Positions 16 to 41,405 of a DNA stretch of 64,000 bases are shown here, in pieces. The notes below the pieces were generated by a model. That model searched no databases. It had not been told where the DNA came from and saw only the letters and a list, made by a program, of their open reading frames with translations. A program made the translations under genes and the position numbers. Position 1 is the stretch's first letter, and each line of letters begins with the position of its first letter. Source of the stretch: a virus; the IMG/VR virus record IMGVR_UViG_3300025154_000006, positions 1-64,000 of that record, one strand, 5' to 3'.

Positions 16-438
16 ATGAAAAGTTATTCTAAGAAATGGTTATCTTTACTTTATGAACTTGGTAAAGAAATTCGTAAACGTGGAGTAGAAAGACATAAAA
101 ACCATGGTTCATATTGGCGCCTAGTTCTTCCAAATGGCATAATTTTTGATCATGATGATTATAACCATAATGTAATCGTTACTTTTCCAGACGGATCTGA
201 GCTATGGTGGGCAGGAAATTTTGGAGGAGAGGTTGGTAATGCTACTGAATATGATTTACAAATTGCTATTGATGCTATTACCTTGACAAGGTATCCAGAA
301 AACCATGAATATATTACTTCGCTAAAAGAAAAACGCACTCTACTGGCGGCTGAATATTCTCGACAACTTGAACGTCTTACGGAAATTGATCGAAAACTTT
401 CTAAATTAGACGAACTTCTAGATAAAGAGTTGCAGTAA
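16..438 (+). CDS. hypothetical protein
   Basis: 140-aa ORF with C-terminal coiled coil, co-oriented with neighbours. Confidence 0.7.
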   Translation: MKSYSKKWLSLLYELGKEIRKRGVERHKNHGSYWRLVLPNGIIFDHDDYNHNVIVTFPDGSELWWAGNFGGEVGNATEYDLQIAIDAITLTRYPENHEYITSLKEKRTLLAAEYSRQLERLTEIDRKLSKLDELLDKELQ

Positions 439-439
439 A

Positions 440-454
440 GTTCGCACTACGAAC
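440..454. promoter_or_regulatory. 15-bp palindromic site GTTCGCACTACGAAC (first of about 20 copies)
   Basis: Matches consensus GTTCGYANTRCGAAC; lies immediately after the stop codon at 438. Confidence 0.8.
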
Positions 455-487
455 CCAGAGGGCGCTTATTTACAAAGCGCCCTCTGG
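455..487 (+). terminator. GC-rich stem-loop (possible terminator or processing site)
   Basis: ccagagggcgctt / aagcgccctctgg inverted repeat; no clear U-tract. Confidence 0.45.
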
Positions 488-530
488 AAAGGAGATAAAC
501 CAAAATGATAGAAATTCATTTCTAAATCTG

Positions 531-539
531 TGATATAAT
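531..539 (+). promoter_or_regulatory. extended -10 promoter (TGaTATAAT) for the GIY-YIG gene
   Basis: Exact TGnTATAAT upstream of the ORF at 668. Confidence 0.65.
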
Positions 540-667
540 CTAAATATCGAGATTGATTATGCACAGTTTTTCTGTTACAATATATTCAACGTCCGCCGCT
601 ACTATTGCCTCTGTGCATCAGTCTCGATAACTGAGTAGTTGGTGGACGTTGTTTTATTGAGGCTAAA

Positions 668-1354
668 ATGAATTCTGGCATCTATCAAATAAGGAATAAG
701 ATTAACAATTATATATACATTGGATCTGCTGTATCTATAACAGAAAGATGGACTGAACATATTCGTAGACTTAACAAGAATAAGCACCATAGTCGTCATC
801 TTCAATCTGCCTGGAATAAGTATGGTGAAGAAAATTTTGAGTTTTCTATTCTCGAAGAATGCGAGAAAGAGCAACTGGTCGAACGAGAACAGTATTATCT
901 GGATACGCTTTGTCCTGAATATAATGTCTGTAAGATTGCATATAGTCAATTAGGAATGAAGCATACTCCAGAAGCGCGAGAGAAAATGTCTATTTCGCGA
1001 AGAGGAAAAATATGTACGGCGGAAACCCGTAAAAAACTATCAGAAAAAGCGAAGGGAAGAACTTTTTCTCAACAATGGCATGAACTTCAAAGCATATCTC
1101 ATAGAGGCTATAAGCCAACTTAGGAAGCTGTACTTAATATGTCTAAGGCCCAGTTAGGAAGAAAACATTCCCAAGAGACAAAAGATAAACAAGCTCTTTG
1201 GCATAAGGGAAGACCTCGTTCTCCAGAAACTATAATAAAAATGTCTATTGCGAATAAAGGGAAAAAGGCCAGTCCAGAGACTCGCAGAAAAATGTCAGAA
1301 GCGCGTATAAAATACCTTTTATCTTTAAAAAAAGAAAATGAGGAAACTACATGA
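668..1354 (+). pseudogene. GIY-YIG homing endonuclease with NUMOD3 repeats, in-frame TAG at 1121-1123
   Basis: SGIYQIRN..YIGSA N-terminus; HTPEAREKMS/HSQETKDKQ repeats; ORFs 668-1123 and 1139-1354 share a frame across one TAG. Confidence 0.85.
785..898. repeat. 114-bp identical segment, inverted copy at 59810-59923
   Basis: Base-by-base identity between the two GIY-YIG genes. Confidence 0.9.
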
Positions 1355-8040: not shown

Positions 8041-8448
8041 ATGAAACAGAAAATAAATCTAATTATCCCTTTGGGAACACCTCATCCAAATCCCTGTCCG
8101 GATTGTGGGAAAAGACTATTGCTAACGAAATTTGGCGATAAGGGTTGTGGATATGCCTGTGAAGATAGAAACAGAACTGGTTGCCGCGGAAACGCAGGGT
8201 GCCATCCCAATGGCAAGCCACTCGGAAAACCTATCGATCAGGAGGACAGACATTTGAGGGTAATCTTGCATTCTCTTATTGATCCCTACTGGCTAAACAC
8301 CCGAGCGCAAGTTCCCAAAAGAAATGCTATTTATGAATTTTTTAGAAAGAAGATGAAACTTAGCGTATTTCATGTCTCGATCTTGACAAAAGATCAGCTA
8401 AAATGGGCCATTAAGATTGCGCAGACTGATTTGAGGAAGGAGTTTTGA
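8041..8448 (+). CDS. zinc-finger protein (DUF3268-like)
   Basis: CPDCG..YAC..C.GNAGCHP..PLG, H...DP.W, FHVS. Confidence 0.7.
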   Translation: MKQKINLIIPLGTPHPNPCPDCGKRLLLTKFGDKGCGYACEDRNRTGCRGNAGCHPNGKPLGKPIDQEDRHLRVILHSLIDPYWLNTRAQVPKRNAIYEFFRKKMKLSVFHVSILTKDQLKWAIKIAQTDLRKEF

Positions 8449-9437
8449 TGCAAATAGATTTCAAAACCTCAAAACGTCAATATGATTGCCGAATAGAAAT
8501 TCAAAGAGATTTAGGCAAGCCAAATGGCATTGGCTCAACGTGGATATGGCCGTGTCCGTTTCACAAAGAAAAAACAATTGGAGGATTTCATGTTTATTCT
8601 ACCGGGTTTAAATGTTATTCGTGTGGAAGACATGGAGACATTTACGATTGGTGGGTATTTTGGAGAGATAAGCCATTATCTGATGTACTAATGGCAGATG
8701 GATTAAATATTAATGATATTACTAAACGAACATCCGAAAATGCAGCAAGAATAGAAAAAGAACTCTCGCACAAGATTTCTGAGGCAAAAAGAGCACTGGA
8801 AGAATTACAATCTACCCGGAAATGGGAAATTTATCATTCCGCACTAACGGCACACGCACGCGAAATGTATAAAAAACGCGGAATTCCAGAGTGGTATCAA
8901 GATTGGAGAAAATTTGGTTTTTGTCCTAATTTCAAAGTTTGGTATAATGGCGCAGATTACTTTACGCCAAGTTTAACTATACCAATGTTTCTTACAGGCT
9001 GGACCTGCATAAACATTCGCCATCGTCTTATTAATCCGCCAGACAATACGCCCGGAAATAAATATCGCCCAGAACGTAGCGGACTTGGTACTCAATTGTT
9101 TTTAGCAAACCCAGATAAATCATCTAACCACGAATACAAATTGATCGTAGAGGGAGAATTCAAGGCTAGTGTTTGCTACGTTACATTGGGTTCTGATAAA
9201 TGGCAAGTAGTTGGACTTCCTGGAAAAAACGCAAAGTCTGACATTGCAGAACAGATAAAGGGCGGTCTTTCTGTTGTGTGCCTAGACCCAGACGCCACAA
9301 AAGAAGCCATTACTCTTGCCAAAAAGATTGGAGGACGAATGTTTGCTTTACCAGAGAAAATAGATGACATGATTATCGCAAATAAAATAACACAGATAGA
9401 CCTTAAGAATTTAATTCGTAGTGCGAACAAAGTGTGA
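8448..9437 (+). CDS. DNA primase (CHC2 zinc finger plus TOPRIM)
   Basis: CPFHKEKT..FKCYSCG; IVEGEFKA; LDPD. Confidence 0.85.
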   Translation: MQIDFKTSKRQYDCRIEIQRDLGKPNGIGSTWIWPCPFHKEKTIGGFHVYSTGFKCYSCGRHGDIYDWWVFWRDKPLSDVLMADGLNINDITKRTSENAARIEKELSHKISEAKRALEELQSTRKWEIYHSALTAHAREMYKKRGIPEWYQDWRKFGFCPNFKVWYNGADYFTPSLTIPMFLTGWTCINIRHRLINPPDNTPGNKYRPERSGLGTQLFLANPDKSSNHEYKLIVEGEFKASVCYVTLGSDKWQVVGLPGKNAKSDIAEQIKGGLSVVCLDPDATKEAITLAKKIGGRMFALPEKIDDMIIANKITQIDLKNLIRSANKV

Positions 9438-9506
9438 AAAACTCATAGAAAACTCGTTACGCACAATGAGGCAAAACGTGATATAAATTCAAGAGAGGAA
9501 ATCACC

Positions 9507-9755
9507 ATGCGTTATTATGAAAAACCCAAGAAACCGTTGAGAAATTGGCAAATGATAAAACGGGTAAAAATTTTCAGGGAGGCACTTTCTGAAATGCCCG
9601 AAGAGTTTAAGCGCGCCATGAATATATTTCGTATCGTTCTTGTTGAACAATTCTGTTCAAGGAACAACCTGTCAGACAGGGAAGACATTTCTGCGTTCTA
9701 CGTAGACGCTGTATTGGCAGAACTTGTTATCAAACAATTACTTAGTTTTGACTAG
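9507..9755 (+). CDS. hypothetical protein
   Basis: RBS gagg. Confidence 0.55.
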   Translation: MRYYEKPKKPLRNWQMIKRVKIFREALSEMPEEFKRAMNIFRIVLVEQFCSRNNLSDREDISAFYVDAVLAELVIKQLLSFD

Positions 9756-9763
9756 GAGAAGAC

Positions 9764-10246
9764 ATGATAATTTATGATCCCAATGACGATCCTGGCGCTT
9801 TTCCCGAGGCCGAGTACGAGGACATTGACGAAAGCGGCAATCCGCCACAGACAAAAGAGCGCAAAAAGACCATGAAAGAAGCGGCGCTTTCGCCAAAGAC
9901 GCCACTACAGCAAAAAGCACTCTACGCTTGCAGAGGGCGTCAGTATTTCGGCACTACGGCGCAGCGCAAATTGTTTCAGAAGATTGAAGCCAAAGCCATT
10001 GGCGCAGATCAACAAAGCCGTCTCTGGGCAGCCTGGATGGATGATCGAATTGGGTGGGCGGCAAAATATCGCTGGAGCATAGAAATGCTTGTGACGGCCA
10101 TTGAAAACAAAGTTAAATATGACGAATGGAAATCTCGACACGCTAGTCTTGTCCTGGCGAGGCCGTCCGTAGAACAACTTGCCGGTGTGGTTGAGAACAG
10201 AATGAAGGAATTAAAACATGACGGATCAGACCAGTCTGACTATTGA
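9764..10246 (+). CDS. hypothetical protein, possible replication initiator
   Basis: Position directly upstream of the DnaC-like ATPase. Confidence 0.45.
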   Translation: MIIYDPNDDPGAFPEAEYEDIDESGNPPQTKERKKTMKEAALSPKTPLQQKALYACRGRQYFGTTAQRKLFQKIEAKAIGADQQSRLWAAWMDDRIGWAAKYRWSIEMLVTAIENKVKYDEWKSRHASLVLARPSVEQLAGVVENRMKELKHDGSDQSDY

Positions 10247-11054
10247 TCACGCAGGAACTGCCGCGGCTTGGACATTCTGGATGGGCTATTTTCGGCAGCG
10301 ACAGGGTAAATTTCCTGGCTTCGATGTTCGTAAAGCAACCAAAAAAGACGTGCTTGGTCTTGGGAATGGCGACGAATGTCCCTTTTGCCACGGAACCGAG
10401 ATAATCAAGTTTAGGGAAACGGTTCGCACTACGAACTATAATCTTGATGCGGTTCTATGTGTTTGTTGCCTGATGCGAGTTACGGCAGGATCAAGAGACG
10501 AAGAATCGCCATGGCAATCTAAAACCGTAGCAGAATTGAAAGAACTTGACATTCCAAAAGGGTCTGCGGGGTTTACCAAAATCATAAAACAAGAAACTGC
10601 CAGATTTATTCGCGATCTTGGAATATGGGTTTATCTTAGTGGTACTTACGGTTGTGGGAAAACAGCACTTGCCTATGCGGTAAAGTCAAACCTACGAGGA
10701 ATTTCTACCTATGTCAACGTGGCAGATCTATCAGACAAAATCTATGAGGCTACCGGAAAACATACCCTAAACGACTTAACCGACAGTCTAATTGGCATTC
10801 CGGTGCTTATTGTTGATGATCTTGGAGCAGAACACTCTACGGATTATCTATATTCTGTACTTTATAAGGTCATAAATGGCAGATACGCAAGAGGGTTTGA
10901 TAGGCCGACTTATATAACGTCCAACCTTCCTATAGGCGAACTCAAGGTATCTACCGTTGACAATCTTCGCAGAATTGCCAGTCGTTTATCAGACAACGAA
11001 CTTGTTGTAGAACTCGTATCAAAACAAGCAGATTATCGAGGGATGAAGAAATGA
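10218..11054 (+). CDS. DnaC/IstB-like AAA+ helicase loader
   Basis: Walker A GTYGCGKT, Walker B LIVDDLGAE, ITSNL, RIASRL. Confidence 0.9.
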   Translation: MTDQTSLTIDHAGTAAAWTFWMGYFRQRQGKFPGFDVRKATKKDVLGLGNGDECPFCHGTEIIKFRETVRTTNYNLDAVLCVCCLMRVTAGSRDEESPWQSKTVAELKELDIPKGSAGFTKIIKQETARFIRDLGIWVYLSGTYGCGKTALAYAVKSNLRGISTYVNVADLSDKIYEATGKHTLNDLTDSLIGIPVLIVDDLGAEHSTDYLYSVLYKVINGRYARGFDRPTYITSNLPIGELKVSTVDNLRRIASRLSDNELVVELVSKQADYRGMKK

Positions 11055-11455
11055 CAGTAACAAAAGACCAAATTGCAAATTTGTTAAACGAGTACAAGAC
11101 GGATAAATTAGTTGCCATAAACGTATTGGGTATGCAACTTGAAAGTAATCTTGGATTAGCCGGAGGTCATTTTTGGGTTGGCAACGGCGTTCGGTTTGGC
11201 GAAATGAGACAGTGTGATCTATGGAGATTTAGTGACGATTTTTCTTGTGCTTGGGACGTGTTGGAGTTTCTTTCACAGAAGTACGAATGCTCAACCGCCG
11301 TTGGTCGCGAATATCCTTTCAATAGAGGCGTTTACGTAGCGCGAATGGTTGGCGGAAGGTATCAATACAATAACCCAGAATTGAAACTTTATGCCCTTGC
11401 CGAAACCGCGCCACTTGCTATCTGCCGTTTGGCATTACTTACGGTGGCAAAATGA
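11051..11455 (+). CDS. phage ABA-sandwich domain protein
   Basis: FS.D..CAW.V...TAPLAICRLAL. Confidence 0.75.
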   Translation: MTVTKDQIANLLNEYKTDKLVAINVLGMQLESNLGLAGGHFWVGNGVRFGEMRQCDLWRFSDDFSCAWDVLEFLSQKYECSTAVGREYPFNRGVYVARMVGGRYQYNNPELKLYALAETAPLAICRLALLTVAK

Positions 11456-12399
11456 TAAAGAGACTACATGAGATAGTTGAAGAACGCAGACTAGAGTTGA
11501 TCGAGTGGCAGAAGGACCCAGATGAACATCGTCCTATTTCAACTGGAATAACCGCGCTTGATGATCTGTTTGGCGGCTTTCCCAGGTATCCGTTTTACTT
11601 TGCTCTGATAGGAAGAATGAAAAGCGGGAAAAGCACCGTGGGTCTAAACCTAACACTTGCCCTGTGCGCTAATTCCCAAAAGCCCACCATTCTATATACG
11701 CTTGAAGAATCTAATAGAGAGGTTGCCGATAGGGTTATCGCAAAGTCAACAAGTGTTGGTCGTAGTGACATCTTTAATCTTAGGCTTACTTATGAGATGT
11801 TCCAAGAGATGACCCGAGCAGTAGAAGAGTGTAAAGAATTTAGTTATTATGTAAATGATCATTTATCTAACCTAACCGACATTCTTACGGATGCAAAGAA
11901 GAATAAAGTGACCCAGATCATCATTGATAACTTTCAGCTACTTACAGGAGGCAAAGGGCAATCAAAGAGAGAACAGTTAGAGTATTTATCTCAACAGATT
12001 ATGCGCGCCAGGCAGGAAGGCATGACAATATTCCTGGTTAGTCAGGGAAACGACAAGGACGGTTCTTTTGGGTCCGAACAAGTACTAAAAGACGCCAATA
12101 TCGTTGTTGGTATTGATTTAGTTCATATTGACTCAACAGATAAGAATAGTGCTATTCTGGATACCATGAGGCGGCTTACGGTACGGCTTTCTAGGTTTTC
12201 TTCAATGGGCACTCATGCAGATATATTCTTTGATGGAGAACACTCACGCATACTTCAATTAGAAACAGTAATGCCCGATGATATAGACTTCTATATCAGA
12301 ACACTTGATAAACACGGAAGCGCAGAACAGGCAATTGTCGAACCGGCCATACCAGAACCAGAAATGGAAGAGAACCTTCCAATAGTAATAGGAGAATAA
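11452..12399 (+). CDS. DnaB-like replicative helicase (C-terminal ATPase domain only)
   Basis: ISTGITALD, GRMKSGKS, TLEES, IIDNFQL, VSQ. Confidence 0.85.
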   Translation: MIKRLHEIVEERRLELIEWQKDPDEHRPISTGITALDDLFGGFPRYPFYFALIGRMKSGKSTVGLNLTLALCANSQKPTILYTLEESNREVADRVIAKSTSVGRSDIFNLRLTYEMFQEMTRAVEECKEFSYYVNDHLSNLTDILTDAKKNKVTQIIIDNFQLLTGGKGQSKREQLEYLSQQIMRARQEGMTIFLVSQGNDKDGSFGSEQVLKDANIVVGIDLVHIDSTDKNSAILDTMRRLTVRLSRFSSMGTHADIFFDGEHSRILQLETVMPDDIDFYIRTLDKHGSAEQAIVEPAIPEPEMEENLPIVIGE

Positions 12400-17943: not shown

Positions 17944-18951
17944 ATGAATAACGTTTGCTATATAGGCCAAATAAAAGAAGTCAAGCCCATTGAACTTGCT
18001 GATCGTCTGGAAAGTGCCGTTGTTTTCTGTGGCGATGGCGGGACATGGGAAGGTGTGGTTGAAAAATGGCGTTGGCAACTCGGAGAAATGTGTGTTGTCT
18101 TTCTTTAAGACGCCCTAGTTCCTGCCATTCCGGGACTTGAGTTCATGGATAAGAGTAAGCGCCGCGTCAAAATGGCTCGTTTCCGCGGTGCGCCAAGCGA
18201 ATGCGTGATCTTCAATTGTATTGCTACTGGCAATGTTGGCGATGAGGTAAGTGAACAACTTGGAGTTACTAAGTACGAGAAGCCTATTCCCGTAGAGATG
18301 CAAGGGCAGGCTAAGGGCAACTTCCCGTTATTTATCCCAAAGACAAGTGAACAAAATTACCAAGCGGCACCAGTCATTGTTGAGTATCTAGGGACCGTTC
18401 CATTCTATGTTACTCTAAAGGTAGATGGGATTAGCGGTACTGCTTATCGTTATTTTGGAGAATTTGGCGTTTGTTCTCGTACTCTGGAACTCAAAGACCA
18501 GTTTCCATTCTGGAAGAAAAATCTTGATTATCCGGGTAATATCTATTGGCGTATGGCTAAAAAGTACGATCTTGAAAACAAGATCCCGGAGGGTTTCGCC
18601 ATTCAGTTTGAAGTCTACGGAGAGGGTATTGGCGTTCCAAAGAACCCGCTTGGGATCAAAGGACATGAGATTATCGTCTTCAATCTCTACAACATTGCCA
18701 AACATGAGTACGAGAGTTATCAGACACTCAAAGATTTCTGTTCGCAGTACGAACTTCCCTTTCCGCAAGAAGTTGATCCGTTGTCTATTCCTCAAATGGA
18801 AACCAATGATGATTGGCGTAAGTTCGTAGAAACCCTCAAATACTCTAATGGCAAACCCGTTGAGGGTATTGTTGTTCGTCCTCTTGTAGAACATAGGGCT
18901 GGAAATCATCGCTGTAGTATGAAGGTACTCAACTTGAGCCATAAGGACTAA
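17944..18951 (+). pseudogene. RNA ligase (Rnl2/DRB0094-like) with in-frame TAA at 18106-18108
   Basis: N-terminus I..VKPIELADRLE; motif I KVDG, QFEVYG, FNLY, EGIVVR, SMKV; both ORFs share a frame. Confidence 0.85.
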
Positions 18952-20782: not shown

Positions 20783-21030
20783 TCTGCCCAATCTGCAAAG
20801 TTAACAACATCACCAAATCCATTAATCAATTTGGTGGCAGGATACCCATTTGTGGGTCCTGCCACCAGGAGGGATTAGAGTGGGCTACGGAAGATCCGTT
20901 TCTGATGAGAGAACTTGAACACGGATTTTCGCTTGACGAAGCGCTAAAGACTTATCACTGGTCTTTGCCACCAGACAACGATGATGAGTTTGTGAATTTC
21001 GTGTGGCAAATACACTTTGCGATTGATTAG
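20779..21030 (+). CDS. Zn-ribbon hypothetical protein (last + strand gene before convergence)
   Basis: CPIC..CGSC; stop overlaps the stop of the convergent gene. Confidence 0.55.
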   Translation: MICPICKVNNITKSINQFGGRIPICGSCHQEGLEWATEDPFLMRELEHGFSLDEALKTYHWSLPPDNDDEFVNFVWQIHFAID

Positions 21031-21926
21031 GTTGCTCGTATCGAGACTTTCTTGATATTGCTTTCTTTGGTGGTTCCTCTGCCGGTGGCGCCACAAGAGG
21101 AACACCGAAAACCGCTCCACAAGCCTTGAGGTGTTTGATATTGCACGGACCAAGAAAGATTATCGCTTTCGCATTTCGGACACATATCTTTATCATGCTC
21201 TGTGAAAATGTTGAGATTGGGATGACCTGGTATCCACGGAAGAAATCTTAGATAGACATCCTCAAGCAATGGCGCAACGTCCCGTTTGCAGTATTTGAGC
21301 ATTTTCTCCAACCCGTCTTTACTTCCCTCGGCACAGACGTCCCAATCTTCAATGGTCATCTTTGTTTTTCCACCAATCCCAAGAACGGTCTTTCCTAATT
21401 CGTCTAAGCTATTTGAGGTAAATGCAAACTTCTCTCTCGCAACCTTGAGGGTATCTACGATAGAATAAAATGATGGGGGCGGATAGTTATATTTGAGAAA
21501 CTTTGTGTTTAGGCGCTTAAAATCAAACTCGCGACCATTTTGTGTAATAATTATATCGGCTTGATCCATTAGTTTCCATATTCCGCTAAGTATACTTCCC
21601 TCTTCTCTTGCAATTGCTTCTTTCGGAGTAACAATTTCTCCCATTATTTCTGGTTCAAACAACCACTTTGCCGCCCAACAGAGAATTGACCAGTCTTTGA
21701 CTATACGGTTTGGTTGAATATATTCTGTTTTTAGGCTCCAAATACCGCGTACTTCCATATACAGGGTTTCTATATCAAGCAATAGTATCTTGGCAGTTCT
21801 TGGGTGGCGGGATTCCAGGCTTTGATATTTATGACATTTTGGACACTGATATTGTTCTTTATTGGTTAAATCTCTGGGGTTTCTTCGTTTCCACAACGTT
21901 ATATGTTCGCAGTATTTACACTTCAT
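21027..21926 (-). CDS. DEDD/RNase H-like 3'-5' exonuclease with Zn ribbons
   Basis: LLDIET, TQNG.EFD, VDTL, YCKRDV; C-terminal CPKC..CSSCG. Confidence 0.85.
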   Translation of the reverse strand: MKCKYCEHITLWKRRNPRDLTNKEQYQCPKCHKYQSLESRHPRTAKILLLDIETLYMEVRGIWSLKTEYIQPNRIVKDWSILCWAAKWLFEPEIMGEIVTPKEAIAREEGSILSGIWKLMDQADIIITQNGREFDFKRLNTKFLKYNYPPPSFYSIVDTLKVAREKFAFTSNSLDELGKTVLGIGGKTKMTIEDWDVCAEGSKDGLEKMLKYCKRDVAPLLEDVYLRFLPWIPGHPNLNIFTEHDKDMCPKCESDNLSWSVQYQTPQGLWSGFRCSSCGATGRGTTKESNIKKVSIRAT

Positions 21927-32322: not shown

Positions 32323-32760
32323 TTATGAAATATCCAGTGGCGTTGCGCTTAGGCATTGAAACACACACTGTACCAAAGACCAGGCGCTTGGGCCCTCTAC
32401 CATTACACCAAGAAGTTGCTCTGAAAACGAACCAAGCATTACCACATTATATACCTGTTCGCAGTGCGAAACCATGGTCAAAACATTTGACGGAGTTCCG
32501 TTTGGGTTGTTGAACGAAAAGAAGGTTCGTAAATCTTCAAGATTGCCAAAATTTTCTCTATTCTCTTCTTGCCTAACCCGAACAAGATATTCGTCTCTTT
32601 TATAAAGCCCACCGACTGCAATGTCAAGGCTTCCATCAAGGGTTTTGTCGATACTCTGAGACTTTTCGAGAATTGGTCTATATCCAGATAAAAGTACCTG
32701 AAAACGACGCGAAAAACTACCGTCGCTTGTTGTAAGAGTAAAATAATCATTGGTTGCCAT
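32323..32760 (-). CDS. distal tail protein-like
   Basis: Directly follows the tape measure; KTLDGSL motif. Confidence 0.55.
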   Translation of the reverse strand: MATNDYFTLTTSDGSFSRRFQVLLSGYRPILEKSQSIDKTLDGSLDIAVGGLYKRDEYLVRVRQEENRENFGNLEDLRTFFSFNNPNGTPSNVLTMVSHCEQVYNVVMLGSFSEQLLGVMVEGPSAWSLVQCVFQCLSATPLDIS

Positions 32761-35700
32761 TATGATCTTAGTTCCTGTGCTACTGCGTCAATAACAAATC
32801 TGGACAGGTGTTCGTTACCAAGATAAATGTTAATTGTTTGCTTTTTATCTTGCTTTACGGCATTGTTCAAGAGGTAGGTAGTGTCATTATACATTGTATC
32901 CTCGGTTTGATTTGACAAATAGGGATAGTTGACCGGAAGAGTATCTTTGGGTTGGCGCGGATCTTGCGGAGCAGGTTGAACAGGCGGCGGATTAGTTCCG
33001 GCCTCGTAAATTAAATTGATTTGATCTAATACTCCGGCAAGTCCGATCCGAAGCTTTTCCATTCCTTCACCAGACAATGTGTTCAATTCGCCACCCATAG
33101 ACATAATGGCAAGTTGCATCTGGAAAACAGCCTCTTCGTGTTCATGTGCGGCCCTGGCCTGTTCTTCTGCAAGAGCAAGCTGTTTTTGTTGTAGGGCGTA
33201 TTGTTCCTTGGCATACCTTCGTTCTTCTGCAACTTGTTCTGCTTGTAACTTTTTCTGCTCTTCGTAATATTTCTTTTGAAGATCAAGTTGCTTTTGTTGC
33301 ATTGCAAGAGATTCGAGCTGTTGTTTCTTTTGAAGATTAAAACGCTCGTCCTCAAGCTTCCAAAGTTCTTCTTGGCGCGCGCGTTGTTTCTCAATCTGGT
33401 CGCCTTCCATATTGTGCATGGTGGTCTCGCGACCCATTTTCCGTTCGGCCAATTTGCGTTGGCGCCCAGTCATAAAACGAGATTCTTCCGCAAAATCTTC
33501 TTGCTTCCATCCCCACTGCATATTGCGAAGTTGATCTTGATAGCCCCAATCTTCCTTGGCCCAGGTGCGCGTGAGGTTCATCTGGGTTTGTTGAATAGTA
33601 TTGCCAATATTGATATTTGCCGCAGATTGGTTTATCTGTTCTTGTTGCAGACCAAACTGTTGTTGCTGATACCAATTTGACAGGGCGATTTGCTTATCCT
33701 GAATCCCCCACATGGTCTGGGTATGAGCCCATCCCGATTGAAGTCCTTGTTGTTGCAACGCAAAGCCTTGTTGTTGGTATCCGTAACTTTGTTGCATCCA
33801 GCTATATTGTTCTCCCTGTATACCGCCAATAGACGTAATTTGGTTGGGTTGACCAGTAGCGGGATTGATGCTTCCTAGCGTAATTGGCTGTGCAAGCTGA
33901 ACGCCATTAACTGCGGCGTTAACAGAACGATTCTGTGTTGTCCCAAAAATATTCTGTCCCATTTGTTGCGAAGACAGACTGCCCATTTCTAAACCTGTTG
34001 TCCCATAAGGAAGTCCAGTTAGACGACCATTATTGGTGTCTGTCATTGCCAGATAGTTGGCATTGATAGTGTTGCCCTGCATGGTTCTGACACCGGGAAG
34101 TTGTCCCAGGTCCATACCGCCCAGGGCCAAGGTTGCCATGGCCATAGGGTCGCCACCAAGAGCACGATTATAGAATTCTGCTTGCCCACCCGTCATTCCA
34201 GTCATTTGTGCATAGATTTTATTTCCGGTACTGGCATTGCCATAAAAGGTGCTTTTATCGTACTGGCTTTGTGCCATTCCGCGCACCTGCTCTGCGGCAA
34301 ATGTAGACGCCGTAGCAGAAGCGGTAAGATTTGCGGCTTCTCGTGGCGACATTAAGGGCGATAATTTTGTTGGATCTACCGCAGTGGTCGATCTTCCAAT
34401 TGCGGCATTTGCCATATATGCTTCTTGTTGTGCGCGAATAACATTTTCGGCAGGAGTACCAACAAATTTCGATAATGTGTCCTCGAATTTGATCAACAGA
34501 TCGTTTATCTCTGTTTCTGTTCTTTGTCTTGCGCCTCCCGCCATTGTTGGACCCATTGGGTGCCCCTGCATATATTTAACGCCAGGCAACGATGTGGCAA
34601 ATTCTGCGCCAGTTGTAATTGCAATTCTTTGTTCTTCTGGAATTTCTTTATCTGAAAGATAACGCGTAAGCGCGTCTGTTCTAAGGCTTCCTTTGCTGTC
34701 TCTTTGCCACGCAAACGTAGCGCCTCTTCCGGCGCCGGACAATATTGACTGGGCCAAATCCTGATCCCTGATCCCAAGATCCATTCCAGAAGCAAGTTTT
34801 TGTGTAAGGCTATTGTTAATTGTCCAATTTGGATTTCGCGCATACATAGCTTGGACGTTAGCAACTGCTTGTTGGGAGTAAATACTCATTCCCGGTTGTT
34901 CCATTAAAAGCCTGGTTCCGCCACTTATGGTTCCGGCCAGGCCGCCAGAACCACGTAGTTGTCTAAGTTGCTCAAATGTTGTACCGCCTTCAATTTGTTT
35001 ACGGGCTTGTTCGTACCACGTTTCTCGTTCTTGATTTAGCGCACCGCGACTTCCGTCTTCAAATGTTCTTTCTCTGGCAAATGGCTTATATTTATAACCA
35101 CCAGAAAACGTTTGCGCCAATACGTCATATGGTGCCAGGAAATATTGCTTTGCTTCGTCAAATTTCGATAAGCGATAAGCAAGCGACTCTTGATCTTCCG
35201 TTTTCTGATATATCTGTGATCCGCCAGATACCACCGCGGTGGCAATTCCTACCGGAAGCGCCGCTTTACCAAAGAATTTTGATGCAGTACTTCCTTTTCT
35301 AAAGGAATCGGCAATCCACTGAGTAGCGCCCCACGCACCTACGCCCGCCATTGCCGTTCCAAAGACATCGCCAAGAACTGGATAATCTGCGGCCATGGTC
35401 TGCGCGGTTATAAGCGGATTGGCATTTGCGCCCATAAGTGCCTGTTTATTTAGCAATGCCATCTGTGGACTGTAGACGGGTTGGCGAATACCAAAAGTTT
35501 GCGCGGCCTGAGCAGAAATGGCCTGATTTAGACCCATCGCCTGTTCTTGTCCCTGGCCCATTCCACCAGTAATGATGTTTCCAATAGAACGGAAATACAT
35601 CAAACCAAAACCACTGAGCATTCGCCTGGCCGCACCGCCCATTGTATTCTCTTCGGCCATTGCCTCTTGCTCGAGCTTTTGCGTCATTCTTGCATTGTCT

Positions 35701-38700
35701 ATTTTCTGCAAACGCCCTTGCAGAGTCCCAAGTTTTGTAACGTCTTCTTGCGTTAGTTGACCAGATGCAAGTTTGGTTTCGCCTTCCGACACTTGCTTTT
35801 TGAGATTTTCGTAGGCCATTTCTTGCCCAAGCCTGCGTTTTTGTTCTTGTACACCGCTTAGGGCTTTTTCTTCATCAACCAGTCCCTTAATGCGGTTTCC
35901 GTGTTTGTCGGATAATTTGCCAAGAAGATCGGCCTCTTCTTTTATTAAGCGGTTGTATTCTGCGCGTTGAGAACTGGTTCCGGTAACAAGTCCACCGCCG
36001 CTACCCTCTTTGAGCATATCGCCGGTTTTTAGTTTGTAAGCGTCTGTCAAATCTGCCAATTCGGTTTGCTGTTGGCCGATCAGATCTGGGCGTTCTTTCT
36101 TTATTTTTGCGGTAATGCCGAGATTTTCTCTTAGTATGGCTTTGTTTTGCGCAGCGGCTATGAACGGTTTCATTCTTTCAAGCCGCTCATCTATGGTTCC
36201 AGTTCTTTCGGGTCCAACAATGCCAGCTTTCGACATTCCAGTAAAGAGTTCCTGGAAAGTATTAGAAGTAACAAGTGCCTCTGACATTTCTGCTATGAAA
36301 GCGTTTTGCGCCATTCCGCTTGCGGTTCTACCGCGGCCAGCATCGCCAAGCTCCGTAATTGCTCTTTTGCCCTTATTGTCAGCATATGACGTGTTGAGAT
36401 TTGCAATGGCGTCGCCCATATCAGGAAAACTTGTTTCTTTGTGTTCTTTTACACCAGAATACGCCAATTGTTGCGCGTCTCTCAATAGACCGGCTTGTCG
36501 TAATGTTGGCCCGTGAATTCTAAGTAACCTATTGGCCTCTGCCGGATTCGTCAACCTTAATTGGTTTATTCTTGCAGAAATATTCCTTGCCTCAAGTGCG
36601 CTTTCTCCCGCATTAAGTTCTGGGAACCCAAGATCGGTTAGAGACTTGTCCAGAGTACTAAAAGTTCCTCTAATCTGTTCAATACTATCCTGGTACATAT
36701 TAGAGAAAGCGGCAAGCGCTTTACGGGCTTTGCTTGGTGAGGAAACAAAGCTTGGATATTTTCCACCACCAGTCGCATCTTTACCGCCACTTCTTCCGCC
36801 AAAAGTACCCTCCGCAATAGCATCTACTGTGCGATCATACCCGATCCACCCCGTAGTGTTCCCTTCTTTGTCTTTAAGCGGAATATCGTGAGGCTTTTCG
36901 CCGCCAGCCAATATGGTTTGCTGTTCTTTTGTCTTCTTTGATGTAAGAACAGATTGTTCTTTGCCAAACGGAATTTCTCTTGCCGACTCAAAATCAAAAT
37001 TAGCGGCAAGGTTTGGATTGATTGCCGTACCAAGTCGTTGTAATTCTGGAATAAGCACATCTTTTTCTTTTTGCGTTAAGTTCGGATCATTGAGTTTCGC
37101 TTCAAGGCGATGCGATTTCTCTACGAGCGTCTCTTTGCCCTCGTTCGCACTGCGAACTGCGGAACTTAGTCTATCAAGCATTTGATTCTCACTAGACTTT
37201 GGATCGTAGCCAAGAATTTGCTGCATCTGTATACTTGTGGTTCCCGGCATTTGTGCGGAAGTTCGCGCTAATCTTCCGGCGCCAGCCGTATCTTCCGAAG
37301 TAACGTATTTGTTCTTTCTTGCAGAATAAACATCTTCTGTTCCAATTGCTTCCCATTGCGAATAAAGCGCATCTGCTTTTGCCTGATCACCACCAGTTAT
37401 TTTCAGCGCGATTGTCTTCGCAAGTTCTTTTTCTTTATTTCCTTCTTTTGAGCCAACGGCACGACCAAAGAAACCAGCAAGAATTGGCATCTTTGTCATC
37501 AGTTCATTGCCCTTTTGCGTACCAAGAGAACGATATGTAGCAGAGATCCGCCTGACGAGGCGCATGCCCCATTGTCCCTTATCTGAAATCGCCTCAAGTT
37601 CAGATCGCAGCACGGCCTCGTCTTCTTCGCTTGTTCCAAACTTGTTTGCTATTGAAGCGGCGGAACGCGTGTAACTTCCATCGGAATATGGCGCAGTAGC
37701 ATCCACGGCGGCCTGTTGCATAAAGTTTTGTAGGCCACCCGTGTCTATATTCTGTTCTTCTTTTCCGCCACCAGAGAACACGCGGTTTACTGGCGACCAT
37801 TCTTTATCCCATCCTTGTGGTTTGGGGCGAGAATATCCAAAGAACTGTTCGCCCTTTTGATTTTCGCCAAATCTTATCGAGGAAAGTGCTTGCGAAAGAT
37901 TGCTATCACCAAGTTCGGCGTAGTCTACACCAGTCATATACGAAGCTTCGTCGCTTACGTTTCCTTTCCTGCCAAGAAACTTATTTGCCGTAGCAAGAGT
38001 AAGCCCTACACTATATTCTTTACCAATGTGTTCAACTGGCATAGACTTACCAACTGCCTGTTTCCAAACCTCGTTGTAGGGAAGAGTTGCCCGTTTTGCT
38101 ATATTCTTTGCTGTTGGATCGACATTTCTAATCGCGTCTCTGGCGCTTTGAACGTAAGAGTTGAACCGATTTGCTGTGTTTAAACTTGGAAACTTTGCCG
38201 CTTCTTTGCCACGAATAAATGCTACTTGGTCTTTTGGAAGAATATTATCGCCAAATGTCTTTAATATTTCTGGACCAAAAGTATCAAAGAAGAACTTTTG
38301 GTATTCTGTATCGTAATCTTTATCTCCCAACTGCCCTCTTCCTATGGCGCTACTTCCATAAATACCATATTGCGCTTCCATTTCTGGTCGTATTCTGTTC
38401 CAAACTTCTTTTCCGAGAAGAGTTCGCATTTCCCTAAACGGGATATTTATACCTGGCATAGGAGATTCGCCCGGGGCGGCAGGATCTCTTTGCGATGCCG
38501 TAACAATGCGTTTTTCTCTTAGAAATCTACTTACTTCTCTTTGCTGTACTTCTAAAGTACCTGCGGCGCGACGCGTCATGGGTTGCAGTAGTTTTTGCGT
38601 AGCATAACTTGTTCCTGGCGCTAGAAATGGCGCAGGATAGTCGCCACCGCGAATTGATAGCGGATCTTCTCTCTCCTGGGACTTTTTGATTAGCCCTTGA

Positions 38701-41405: not shown

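Follow-up and report, generated by a model that had tools for sequence, protein, structure and literature searches.

A phage tape measure protein with a predicted, highly diverged two-barrel RNA polymerase module at its N terminus

Introduction

Can a gene that sits where a phage keeps its tape measure also encode an RNA polymerase (RNAP)? The question is raised by a giant minus-strand gene in 64,000 nucleotides of viral DNA (positions 1 to 64,000 of IMG/VR record IMGVR_UViG_3300025154_000006, hereafter the window), which open a virus record of 83,468 bp that is complete (CheckV 100%) and has direct terminal repeats of 127 bp. An earlier note on this DNA, written from its letters, had read the 2,881-residue product as a tape measure protein (TMP) that conceals a two-barrel RNAP, and had named the TMP-fused virion RNAP gp96 of Thermus phage P23-45 as a precedent. 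The precedent is correct according to the excerpted text of Chaban et al. (2024, PMC10770324; PDB 8H2M, 8H2N), the observation made in the note is confirmed here, and its interpretation is supported. We put at about 0.7 the probability that the giant gene encodes a TMP in which residues 1 to ~1,390 form a strongly diverged single-chain two-barrel polymerase of the class that holds cellular RNAP, QDE-1, YonO, and gp96. It probably represents a new lineage of the known tape-measure-fused virion RNAP, unrelated to it by sequence and lacking a second phage RNAP.

Results

Conservation of the N-Terminal Module

The giant open reading frame (ORF; 41405-32760, minus strand) is real in both the ORF list and the translation and begins with ATG. 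All seven strings that the earlier note had quoted are present in its product, and the Escherichia coli motifs with which they are compared were checked against rpoB and rpoC of NC_000913 (Table 1). A HMMER scan with residues 200-1399 as the query against 1.84 billion representative proteins (E ≤ 1e-3) returned 10 proteins, namely the query's own cluster, eight full-length relatives (2,869–3,421 aa, 23–38% identity, E 1e-228 to 4e-16), and one weak, repeat-driven match; no short stand-alone form of the N-terminal module was among these 10 matches. All members of the family are metagenomic, on contigs of up to ~84 kb.

Conservation was counted on a nine-sequence alignment (homologs at 22–38% identity), in which only 52 of the 1,400 query columns in residues 1-1400 are invariant (9/9). 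They include the aspartates D1028, D1030, and D1032, the proline P975, and a cluster of upstream residues (R500, G501, K505, T511, G512, E532, and K534), bearing out the motif conservation in homologs on which the note had made its reading depend. The residue before the Asp triad is Gly in eight sequences and Ala in one, giving (G/A)DxDxD across the nine, and substitution at the two x positions is free (K/L/M/D/F/N and Y/S/G/R/I/A). What reads DKDYD here is therefore one version of a family-wide GDxDxD, and the site is not a damaged one: the "non-canonical" character ascribed to this loop holds for the two x positions only, whereas the Asp triad itself is invariant. A single DxDxD means little alone, since 1,275/5,000 shuffled sequences contain one (expected 0.31 per protein of the giant protein's composition). 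The aligned DxDxD is, however, the sole DxDxD in 8/9 family proteins, and its conservation at a single alignment column in 9/9 homologs goes beyond chance. In E. coli beta′, NRAP lies 34 aa before NADFDGD; the distance from R-x-P to the Asp triad in the phage protein is ~53 aa.

Two homologs carry an inserted Hint/intein-like domain of ~110 aa (P0009, aa 2789-2899; P0010, aa 2916-3026; PT-HINT, E 6.7e-11), which the giant protein of the window lacks. Because these domains lie outside the N-terminal module, near the C terminus of the tape-measure half, they are uninformative about the active site.

Predicted Fold of the Putative Catalytic Barrel

An AlphaFold2 model of residues 200-1399 was built on the nine-sequence alignment (D1028 is model residue 829). 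Foldseek against the PDB gave 23 matches at E ≤ 1e-3 (best E 1.2e-4, probabilities 0.57–0.97), and among the best 50 matches listed all were RNAP largest subunits (bacterial beta′, plastid RpoC, Rpb1) or QDE-1. When Foldseek's top chains were aligned with VIA-align, the best 50 rows all held an RNAP chain and 33 chains reached a Z of at least 8; RDR2 scored 9.2, QDE-1 8.6–8.8, and Pol I/II/III, vaccinia, African swine fever virus (ASFV), and E. coli beta′ 7.9–8.3, with E. coli beta′ itself at 7.9–8.0. Model residues 712..873 aligned with beta′ 344..497 and Rpb1 356..525 at Z 7.8–8.3 and a root-mean-square deviation (rmsd) of 2.8–4.0.

A structure search independent of Foldseek, over 48,161 representative chains (one per 40% cluster), placed seventeen different RNAPs at ranks 1–17. 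They include QDE-1 (Z 8.6), AR9 (7.7), PhiKZ (7.3), P74-26 gp62 (7.1), P23-45 gp96 (8h2n; 6.6), Pol IV, II, I, and III, and archaeal, mycobacterial, ASFV, and plastid enzymes; as a Z of 7–8 is, by the tool's own caution, a typical best score even without a clear match, we lay weight on ranking and coverage and not on the score. Alignments to RNAPs extend over up to 239 residues and include the connector from model residue ~517, versus 77–105 residues for generic double-psi beta-barrels (DPBBs). Taking both searches together, the predicted barrel A (aa 911-1072) matches RNAP largest subunits at Z 7.1–9.2. The model places the DxDxD loop on a predicted beta′-type DPBB, as membership in the RNAP superfamily requires. 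Since model 712..873 matches beta′ 344..497 (6wmu_D), D1028 extrapolates to beta′ ~461, inside NADFDGD (458-464), and D902 by the same range arithmetic to ~335, at KQGRFR (334-339), these values being extrapolations from aligned ranges and not residue-level alignments. Residues 1 to ~1390 thus very probably belong, on the predicted fold, to the two-barrel polymerase superfamily.

Might the module instead be a single DPBB that is no polymerase, either wall-acting (RlpA, MltA "3D," expansin, or barwin type) or an adaptor like the N-domain of CDC48/VAT, with its conserved Asp residues serving hydrolysis or metal binding? TMPs often carry envelope-degrading (lytic) domains, and generic DPBBs do match the model, among them VAT-N, CDC48A-N (Z 6.5), designed DPBBs (6.0–6.3), a formylmethanofuran dehydrogenase subunit (6.0–6.3), kiwellin (5.3), cerato-platanin (5.0), expansins (4.8–4.9), and barwin-like proteins (4.7). 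Yet they rank after the 17 RNAPs, at Z 4.7–6.5, and cover only model 716-870 (designed and VCP-type DPBB domains, model 716..841, Z 5.9–6.3), and the RNAP alignments are longer. A lytic role has a parallel in gp96 itself, which has a metallopeptidase domain according to the excerpts of PMC10770324. In the giant protein the three Asp form a contiguous DxDxD at the position of NADFDGD; the wall-acting folds reach only Z 4.7–5.3, and the 3D, RlpA-like DPBB, and MltA families of Pfam have no match in any of the nine family members at E ≤ 1. The second barrel, considered below, also bears on this alternative.

Among viral structure models in BFVD, the three best matches (E 2e-6 to 7e-5, probability 1.00) are unnamed or tail-annotated: A0A7R7G2L5_2, A0A8S5SD80_1 ("Minor tail protein," Siphoviridae sp. 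ctnpt50), and A0A172Q021_2 (Acinetobacter phage vB_AbaM_ME3). All three are parts of long phage proteins, none of them annotated as a polymerase; they may be further hidden tail-associated polymerases, which would hint at more hidden fusions of tail proteins and polymerases. The named BFVD matches are mostly viral RNAPs (nudivirus RNAP, LEF-9, and giant-virus, poxvirus, and crAss-like polymerases). Neither phi14:2 gp66, YonO, nor PolD is among the matches listed in any structure search, which is no evidence against a relation.

Second Barrel and Sequence Searches

Several results weigh against a polymerase module, and they begin with the model. Built from nine sequences only, the AlphaFold2 model of residues 200-1399 must be judged mediocre (mean predicted local distance difference test score [pLDDT] 61.6, predicted template modeling score [pTM] 0.36, 554 residues at pLDDT ≥ 70); both motif loops have pLDDT < 50 (model 294-335 and 827-832), and Foldseek TM-scores are ~0.1 because the global packing of the model is poor. 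Neither a bridge helix nor a trigger loop was detected, as alignments stop near model residue ~873 (one at 948) and model residues 861-886 and 906-968, after barrel A, have pLDDT < 50. A conserved helix at about aa 1075-1092, in which N1082, V1085, and D1090 are invariant, is a candidate for the bridge helix/trigger-loop region.

The second barrel was addressed with a separate AlphaFold2 model of aa 340-640 (model 2), in which a confident beta-rich domain (aa 362-496, pLDDT 80–93) is followed by the basic motif at pLDDT < 50. Foldseek on this model gave no match at E ≤ 1e-3; the best was IsdB (E 0.062), with AR9 RNAP at rank 38 and Vibrio cholerae beta at rank 40 (E ~0.45), and in a wide VIA search helical matches to residues 190-271 crowded the list. 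In a second look with VIA-align, 14 of the best 50 rows covered the beta-rich part (model-2 residues ~1-176), and 11/14 were RNAP second-largest subunits, though these amount to three independent proteins since many rows repeat the same E. coli protein. The beta-rich part (aa ~355-505) weakly matched E. coli beta 818..1079, Pol I A135, and ASFV RPB2 (Z 3.3–4.0). In these alignments the last paired residues are 157-166 of model 2 and 1059-1079 of beta, which is at GDKMAGRHGNKG (1063-1074), the place of K505 in the note's alignment, and R500, K505, and K534, the candidate beta-type barrel residues, are all invariant. The predicted match is collinear with beta and weak. Of the two DPBBs claimed for this protein, barrel A is predicted, with RNAPs on top, and the second has weak matches only. 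The by-eye alignments of the note agree with the structure-based ranges at each point compared (D1028 with beta′ ~461, D902 with beta′ ~335, and the domain ending in K505 with beta 818..1065-1079). For the single-barrel alternative, the unconvincing second barrel counts in its favor, and the fact that the weak matches of the upstream domain are RNAP beta-type subunits counts against it; we regard that alternative as unlikely.

No sequence method ties the giant protein to any RNAP, gp96 included. Pfam recognizes 0 families in it at E ≤ 1, and at the same threshold the nine family members yield no RNAP family, with Hint-type domains in two and three weak one-member matches; PF00623 is absent from the phage genome at E ≤ 10, yet was detected in 14/14 control genomes. 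Searches of PHROGs and of the PDB (phmmer) with the whole protein found no match, nor did tblastn (whole protein) or megablast in a set of 50,697 phage records. Word-indexed homolog searches recovered only the protein's own cluster, P0004, and the C-terminal relative P0012, a viral contig scan with the fragment as the query gave nothing, and the ESM Atlas held no usable match. A PDB profile search produced five chance matches only (E 0.76–5.3), in the linker and the helical part. The family HMM scored < 0 bits against E. coli rpoB, rpoC, and gp96 (gp96, −1.2 bits), and the profile comparison with gp96 that the earlier note had proposed found no match (hhalign against an N-terminal alignment of P23-45, stolb3, and TSP4; probability 0.3% full, 0.07% local). 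gp96 is itself undetectable by sequence apart from DFDGD, as stated in the excerpts of PMC10770324, so this failure is expected for such enzymes and does not exclude the superfamily; yet sequence gives no support. The identity of the giant protein as a TMP likewise rests on position and composition, no curated TMP family having matched it (0 Pfam, 0 PHROG).

Taken to the extreme, these results would mean that the fold call is an artefact of a shallow-alignment model combined with a chance-conserved acidic loop, and that the module is a structural tail or ejection domain without catalysis. The pTM of 0.36, the motif loops at pLDDT < 50, Z scores of 7–9 that the tool itself rates as middling, and the failure of every sequence-based test fit such an explanation, and the abundance of RNAP chains in the PDB inflates their count in redundant lists. 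But the nonredundant search still puts 17 different RNAPs first of 48,161 chains, and invariant Asp at i, i+2, and i+4 among 52/1,400 invariant columns would be unlikely for a purely structural loop. The order of the fold call, the invariant DxDxD, the basic motif, and the RxP along the chain is moreover that of beta/beta′, with their register approximately preserved; we therefore disfavor an artefact and consider it very improbable.

Gene Neighborhood

The minus-strand structural block runs from the portal (phrog_64) through the tail tube and three small ORFs to the giant gene; past it, in the same block, lie genes for a 145-aa protein, a 1,281-aa protein, more virion proteins, and an endolysin. 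The supported conclusion is that the giant gene occupies the tape-measure slot, downstream of a tube identified by Pfam. On this point the earlier note holds, since the tube gene (42622-43686) precedes, and its "frameshifting chaperones" are only plausible: ORF 41854-42150 (98 aa) lies in the −1 frame and overlaps the end of ORF 42114-42530 near a CAAAAAG/GGGGGAA stretch, and the small ORFs between tube and giant gene match 0 PHROG families each and no chaperone family. The two ~140-aa ORFs (42114-42530 and 41416-41838) look paralogous because a near-identical DNA block encoding DDIRRKEVFL is common to both. In the C-terminal half of the giant protein, computation finds a hydrophobic Gly/Ala-rich segment (aa 2041-2062), as the note had described, and two long uncharged, Q/G-rich stretches at 2494-2569; the coiled coil that it also described rests on a by-eye reading of charged, heptad-like text at about aa 2640-2790.

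The portal-tube-giant gene order is kept in a relative, L006 (metagenome contig Ga0172367_10003148, 2990-21837), which carries, in order, a portal gene, a capsid-size gene, a tube gene, small ORF(s), the giant gene, a 141-aa gene, and a large tail gene. Identity to L006 is 57% for the tube, 45% for the portal, and about 31–36% for the giant protein; the structural proteins tube and portal are better conserved than the polymerase-bearing giant protein. The complete 83.5-kb genome holds no second polymerase candidate: other DxDxD-containing ORFs of at least 100 aa are only 131 and 343 aa long, and the next-largest ORF, the 1,281-aa tail-module protein, has no DxDxD.

Elsewhere the phage encodes a replication set at 21027-21926 (−), 8445-12399 (+), and 18145-18951 (+), comprising a DNA polymerase exonuclease subunit, a DnaG-type zinc ribbon (8445-9437), an IstB-like loader, and a DnaB-like helicase (DnaB_C, 11452-12399), and listed with it is an RNA ligase-family protein. 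These genes bear on whether the module, if a two-barrel polymerase, might be something other than a DNA-dependent pre-early transcriptase, such as an RNA-dependent RNAP, a synthase of primer or decoy RNA, or a PolD-like DNA polymerase. It is indeed two RNA-dependent enzymes of eukaryotic RNA silencing that match best in structure (RDR2, Z 9.2; QDE-1, Z 8.6–8.8). Likeness to QDE-1 does not imply RNA templates, however, because a dendrogram in the excerpts of PMC10770324 groups enzymes of the QDE-1 type with the single-subunit DNA-dependent RNAPs of phages and plasmids, and the sole TMP fusion characterized in that text is a DNA-dependent transcriptase. The phage has primase-type and helicase genes of its own, and PolD is not among the matches listed (best 50) in any structure search. 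We therefore assign a low probability to these other activities and retain an injected DNA-dependent transcriptase as the preferred reading.

The window also contains 20 copies of a 15-bp palindrome, GTTCGYANTRCGAAC (≤ 1 mismatch; positions 440-63199), versus 0.03 expected, and the genome contains 28; examples lie at 42552-42566 and at 37143-37157, and one copy falls inside the variable linker of the giant gene. As a promoter for the polymerase the palindrome was rejected, with 21/28 copies within crude gene calls and inconsistent distances to gene starts.

Table 1. Features of the giant gene and its surroundings in the window, with the motif strings compared
Feature	Coordinates	Strand	Basis
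Giant gene, 2,881 aa (P0001): N-terminal polymerase-like module, variable linker, tape-measure-like C-terminal half	32760..41405	-	ORF list, translation, ATG start; 8 full-length homologs
Conserved N-terminal module, aa 1-~1390	37236..41405	-	No break in nine-sequence alignment up to about aa 1390; residues 1-1400 include 52 invariant columns
Beta-rich domain, aa 362-496, candidate wall/flap and first part of barrel B	39918..40322	-	AlphaFold2 model 2 pLDDT 80–93; VIA-align Z 3.3–4.0
Basic motif R-x-R-G-x-G-x-K ... T-G ... E-x-K, aa 498-534, candidate counterpart of beta GDKMAGRHGNKG	39804..39914	-	R500, G501, K505, T511, G512, E532, K534 invariant 9/9; pLDDT < 50
Mostly helical connector between barrels, aa 716-910 (clamp-like region in other RNAPs)	38676..39260	-	Alignment of model 517..712 to QDE-1 (from residue 783) and to N-terminal part of beta′/Rpb1
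Predicted double-psi beta-barrel A (beta′-type), aa 911-1072	38190..38675	-	Model 712..873 vs. beta′ 344..497, Rpb1 356..525
R-x-P, aa 973-975, candidate counterpart of beta′ NRAP	38481..38489	-	P975 invariant; about 53 aa before Asp triad
Candidate metal-binding loop G-D-K-D-Y-D, aa 1027-1032	38310..38327	-	D1028, D1030, D1032 invariant 9/9; beta′ ~460-464 by range arithmetic
Variable Gly-rich linker, about aa 1391-1560	36726..37235	-	Alignment gaps and lineage-specific insertions; 5 invariant columns in aa 1401-1900
Tape-measure-like C-terminal half, about aa 1561-2881	32760..36725	-	67 invariant columns in aa 1901-2881
Tail tube protein, upstream neighbor of giant gene	42622..43686	-	Pfam PF18906 Phage_tube_2, E 1.3e-6; phrog_290, E 3.2e-11
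Three small ORFs, candidate assembly chaperones	42114-42530; 41854-42150; 41416-41838 (within 41416..42530)	-	ORF list and sequence
SDRGRGHGWKG	aa 496-506 (nt 39920-39888)	-	Quoted motif confirmed
DVNIDLYTSEAKAPRLNL	aa 523-540	-	Quoted motif confirmed
IPHIMSNITAKHTAS	aa 713-727	-	Quoted motif confirmed
DQGLIKKSQ...PAPFL	aa 902-928	-	Quoted motif confirmed
IVTASQRDP	aa 967-975	-	Quoted motif confirmed
GIYGSS...DKDYD	aa 1014-1032	-	Quoted motif confirmed
DKDYD	aa 1028-1032 (nt 38324-38310)	-	Quoted motif confirmed
E. coli beta strings	GDKMAGRHGNKG 1063-1074; PVDIVLNP 1093-1100; LNHLVDDKMHARS 1235-1247		rpoB, NC_000913
E. coli beta′ strings	KQGRFR 334-339; NRAP 424-427; NADFDGD 458-464		rpoC, NC_000913

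Discussion

With a polymerase module on its tape measure, the phage would probably inject its own transcription enzyme together with the tail. Conservation, gene position, and predicted fold are what we observe here; catalysis, template, presence in the virion, and timing are what we infer. Along the chain, an N-terminal domain would be followed by a beta-rich domain ending in the basic motif (R500, K505, and K534), which is the candidate beta-type barrel, then by a helical connector, and then by the beta′-type DPBB, whose GDxDxD loop would bind the catalytic Mg2+. Another ~320 conserved residues, the variable Gly-rich linker, and the tape-measure half with its hydrophobic Gly/Ala-rich segments would complete the protein. 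In the model for gp96 given in the discussion of PMC10770324, the tail tube houses the tape measure until infection, when the protein is expelled into the envelope. By analogy the giant protein would sit in the tail lumen and be expelled into the cell envelope, and its polymerase end would transcribe the first genes of the entering DNA. On that analogy we lean toward an N-terminal module that acts as an injected transcriptase, with somewhat less assurance than we have in its fold. Host RNAP would take over afterward, because the genome holds no second phage RNAP gene.

A bolder scenario, which we hold only tentatively and think rather doubtful, is that a two-barrel RNAP of the QDE-1/phage clade was fused to the tape measure independently and convergently in mesophilic uncultivated siphophages, where it would be the phage's sole polymerase and would start transcription during DNA entry before host RNAP follows. 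Were it true, tape-measure-coupled transcription would have arisen more than once and would be a general infection strategy beyond Thermus phages.

The fusion of an RNAP to a tape measure is as such known (in the excerpts of PMC10770324). In our literature search it was described only for P23-45 and close relatives, the supplementary survey of that paper, which may list relatives, lying outside the search. What is new here is a family that has no sequence relation to gp96, is roughly half as long, and lacks a partner RNAP. If our reading is right, linking transcription with DNA entry by way of the tail tape would be something that phages do repeatedly and no one-off, and giant proteins annotated as "tape measure" or "minor tail" would hide enzymes that sequence searches miss. 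At ~1,390 aa the module would also be a compact and strongly diverged two-barrel polymerase in which to study the minimal catalytic core. Having no second phage RNAP, the phage would allow a simpler approach than P23-45 to the question of what an injected polymerase has to transcribe.

Comparison with Known Systems

The closest precedent in architecture is gp96 of P23-45, whose type also occurs in P74-26, G20c, TSP4, and P23-45_stolb1-3 (in the excerpts of PMC10770324). As in gp96, a module predicted here to be of two-barrel type stands at the N terminus of a tape measure, with DxDxD some 780–1030 residues from the start, and neither protein has detectable sequence similarity to cellular RNAPs. 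The module makes up aa 1-~1390 of one giant ORF after the tail tube gene, and L006 has the same order. Chain 8h2n_A of gp96 aligns with the model at Z 6.6 and rmsd 2.8 over 95 residues (model 517..853 to gp96 603..793, spanning DFDGD 779-783), and 8h2m_A at Z 5.4. The differences are several: there is no sequence or profile similarity between the two, the giant protein has 2,881 aa versus 5,002 in gp96, its loop is GDKDYD with x positions free among homologs in place of DFDGD, Pfam detects no metallopeptidase domain in it, and its complete 83.5-kb genome, unlike that of P23-45, has no paralogous non-virion RNAP of the gp64 kind.

Compared with bacterial beta/beta′, the motifs are collinear (the K505 motif with beta 1063-1074, D902 with KQGRFR, RxP 973-975 with NRAP, and GDKDYD with NADFDGD), but the phage protein would hold in one chain of about 1,390 aa what bacteria divide between two subunits of 2,749 aa, and it has no Pfam RNAP domain. 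Other phage RNAPs are structurally similar, including gp62 (8f5m_A, Z 7.1), AR9 (7s00_d, Z 7.7), and PhiKZ (7ogp_A, Z 7.3), and crAss-like "putative RNA polymerase" models in BFVD match at E ~0.02. The gp62/gp64, phi14:2 gp66, AR9, PhiKZ, and YonO RNAPs are free or capsid-packaged, unlike the tape measure fusion proposed here. Among the matches listed, the structurally nearest known enzyme to the predicted fold is QDE-1, which with RDR2 (PDB 2J7N, 7Y7P, 7W82) gives the best structural matches (Z 8.6–9.2; model 517..870 against QDE-1 783..1031, connector plus catalytic barrel). Like the phage protein as proposed here, QDE-1 and RDR2 are single-chain two-barrel enzymes; unlike it, QDE-1 is no virion or tail protein, and identity in the aligned parts is only 10–12%.

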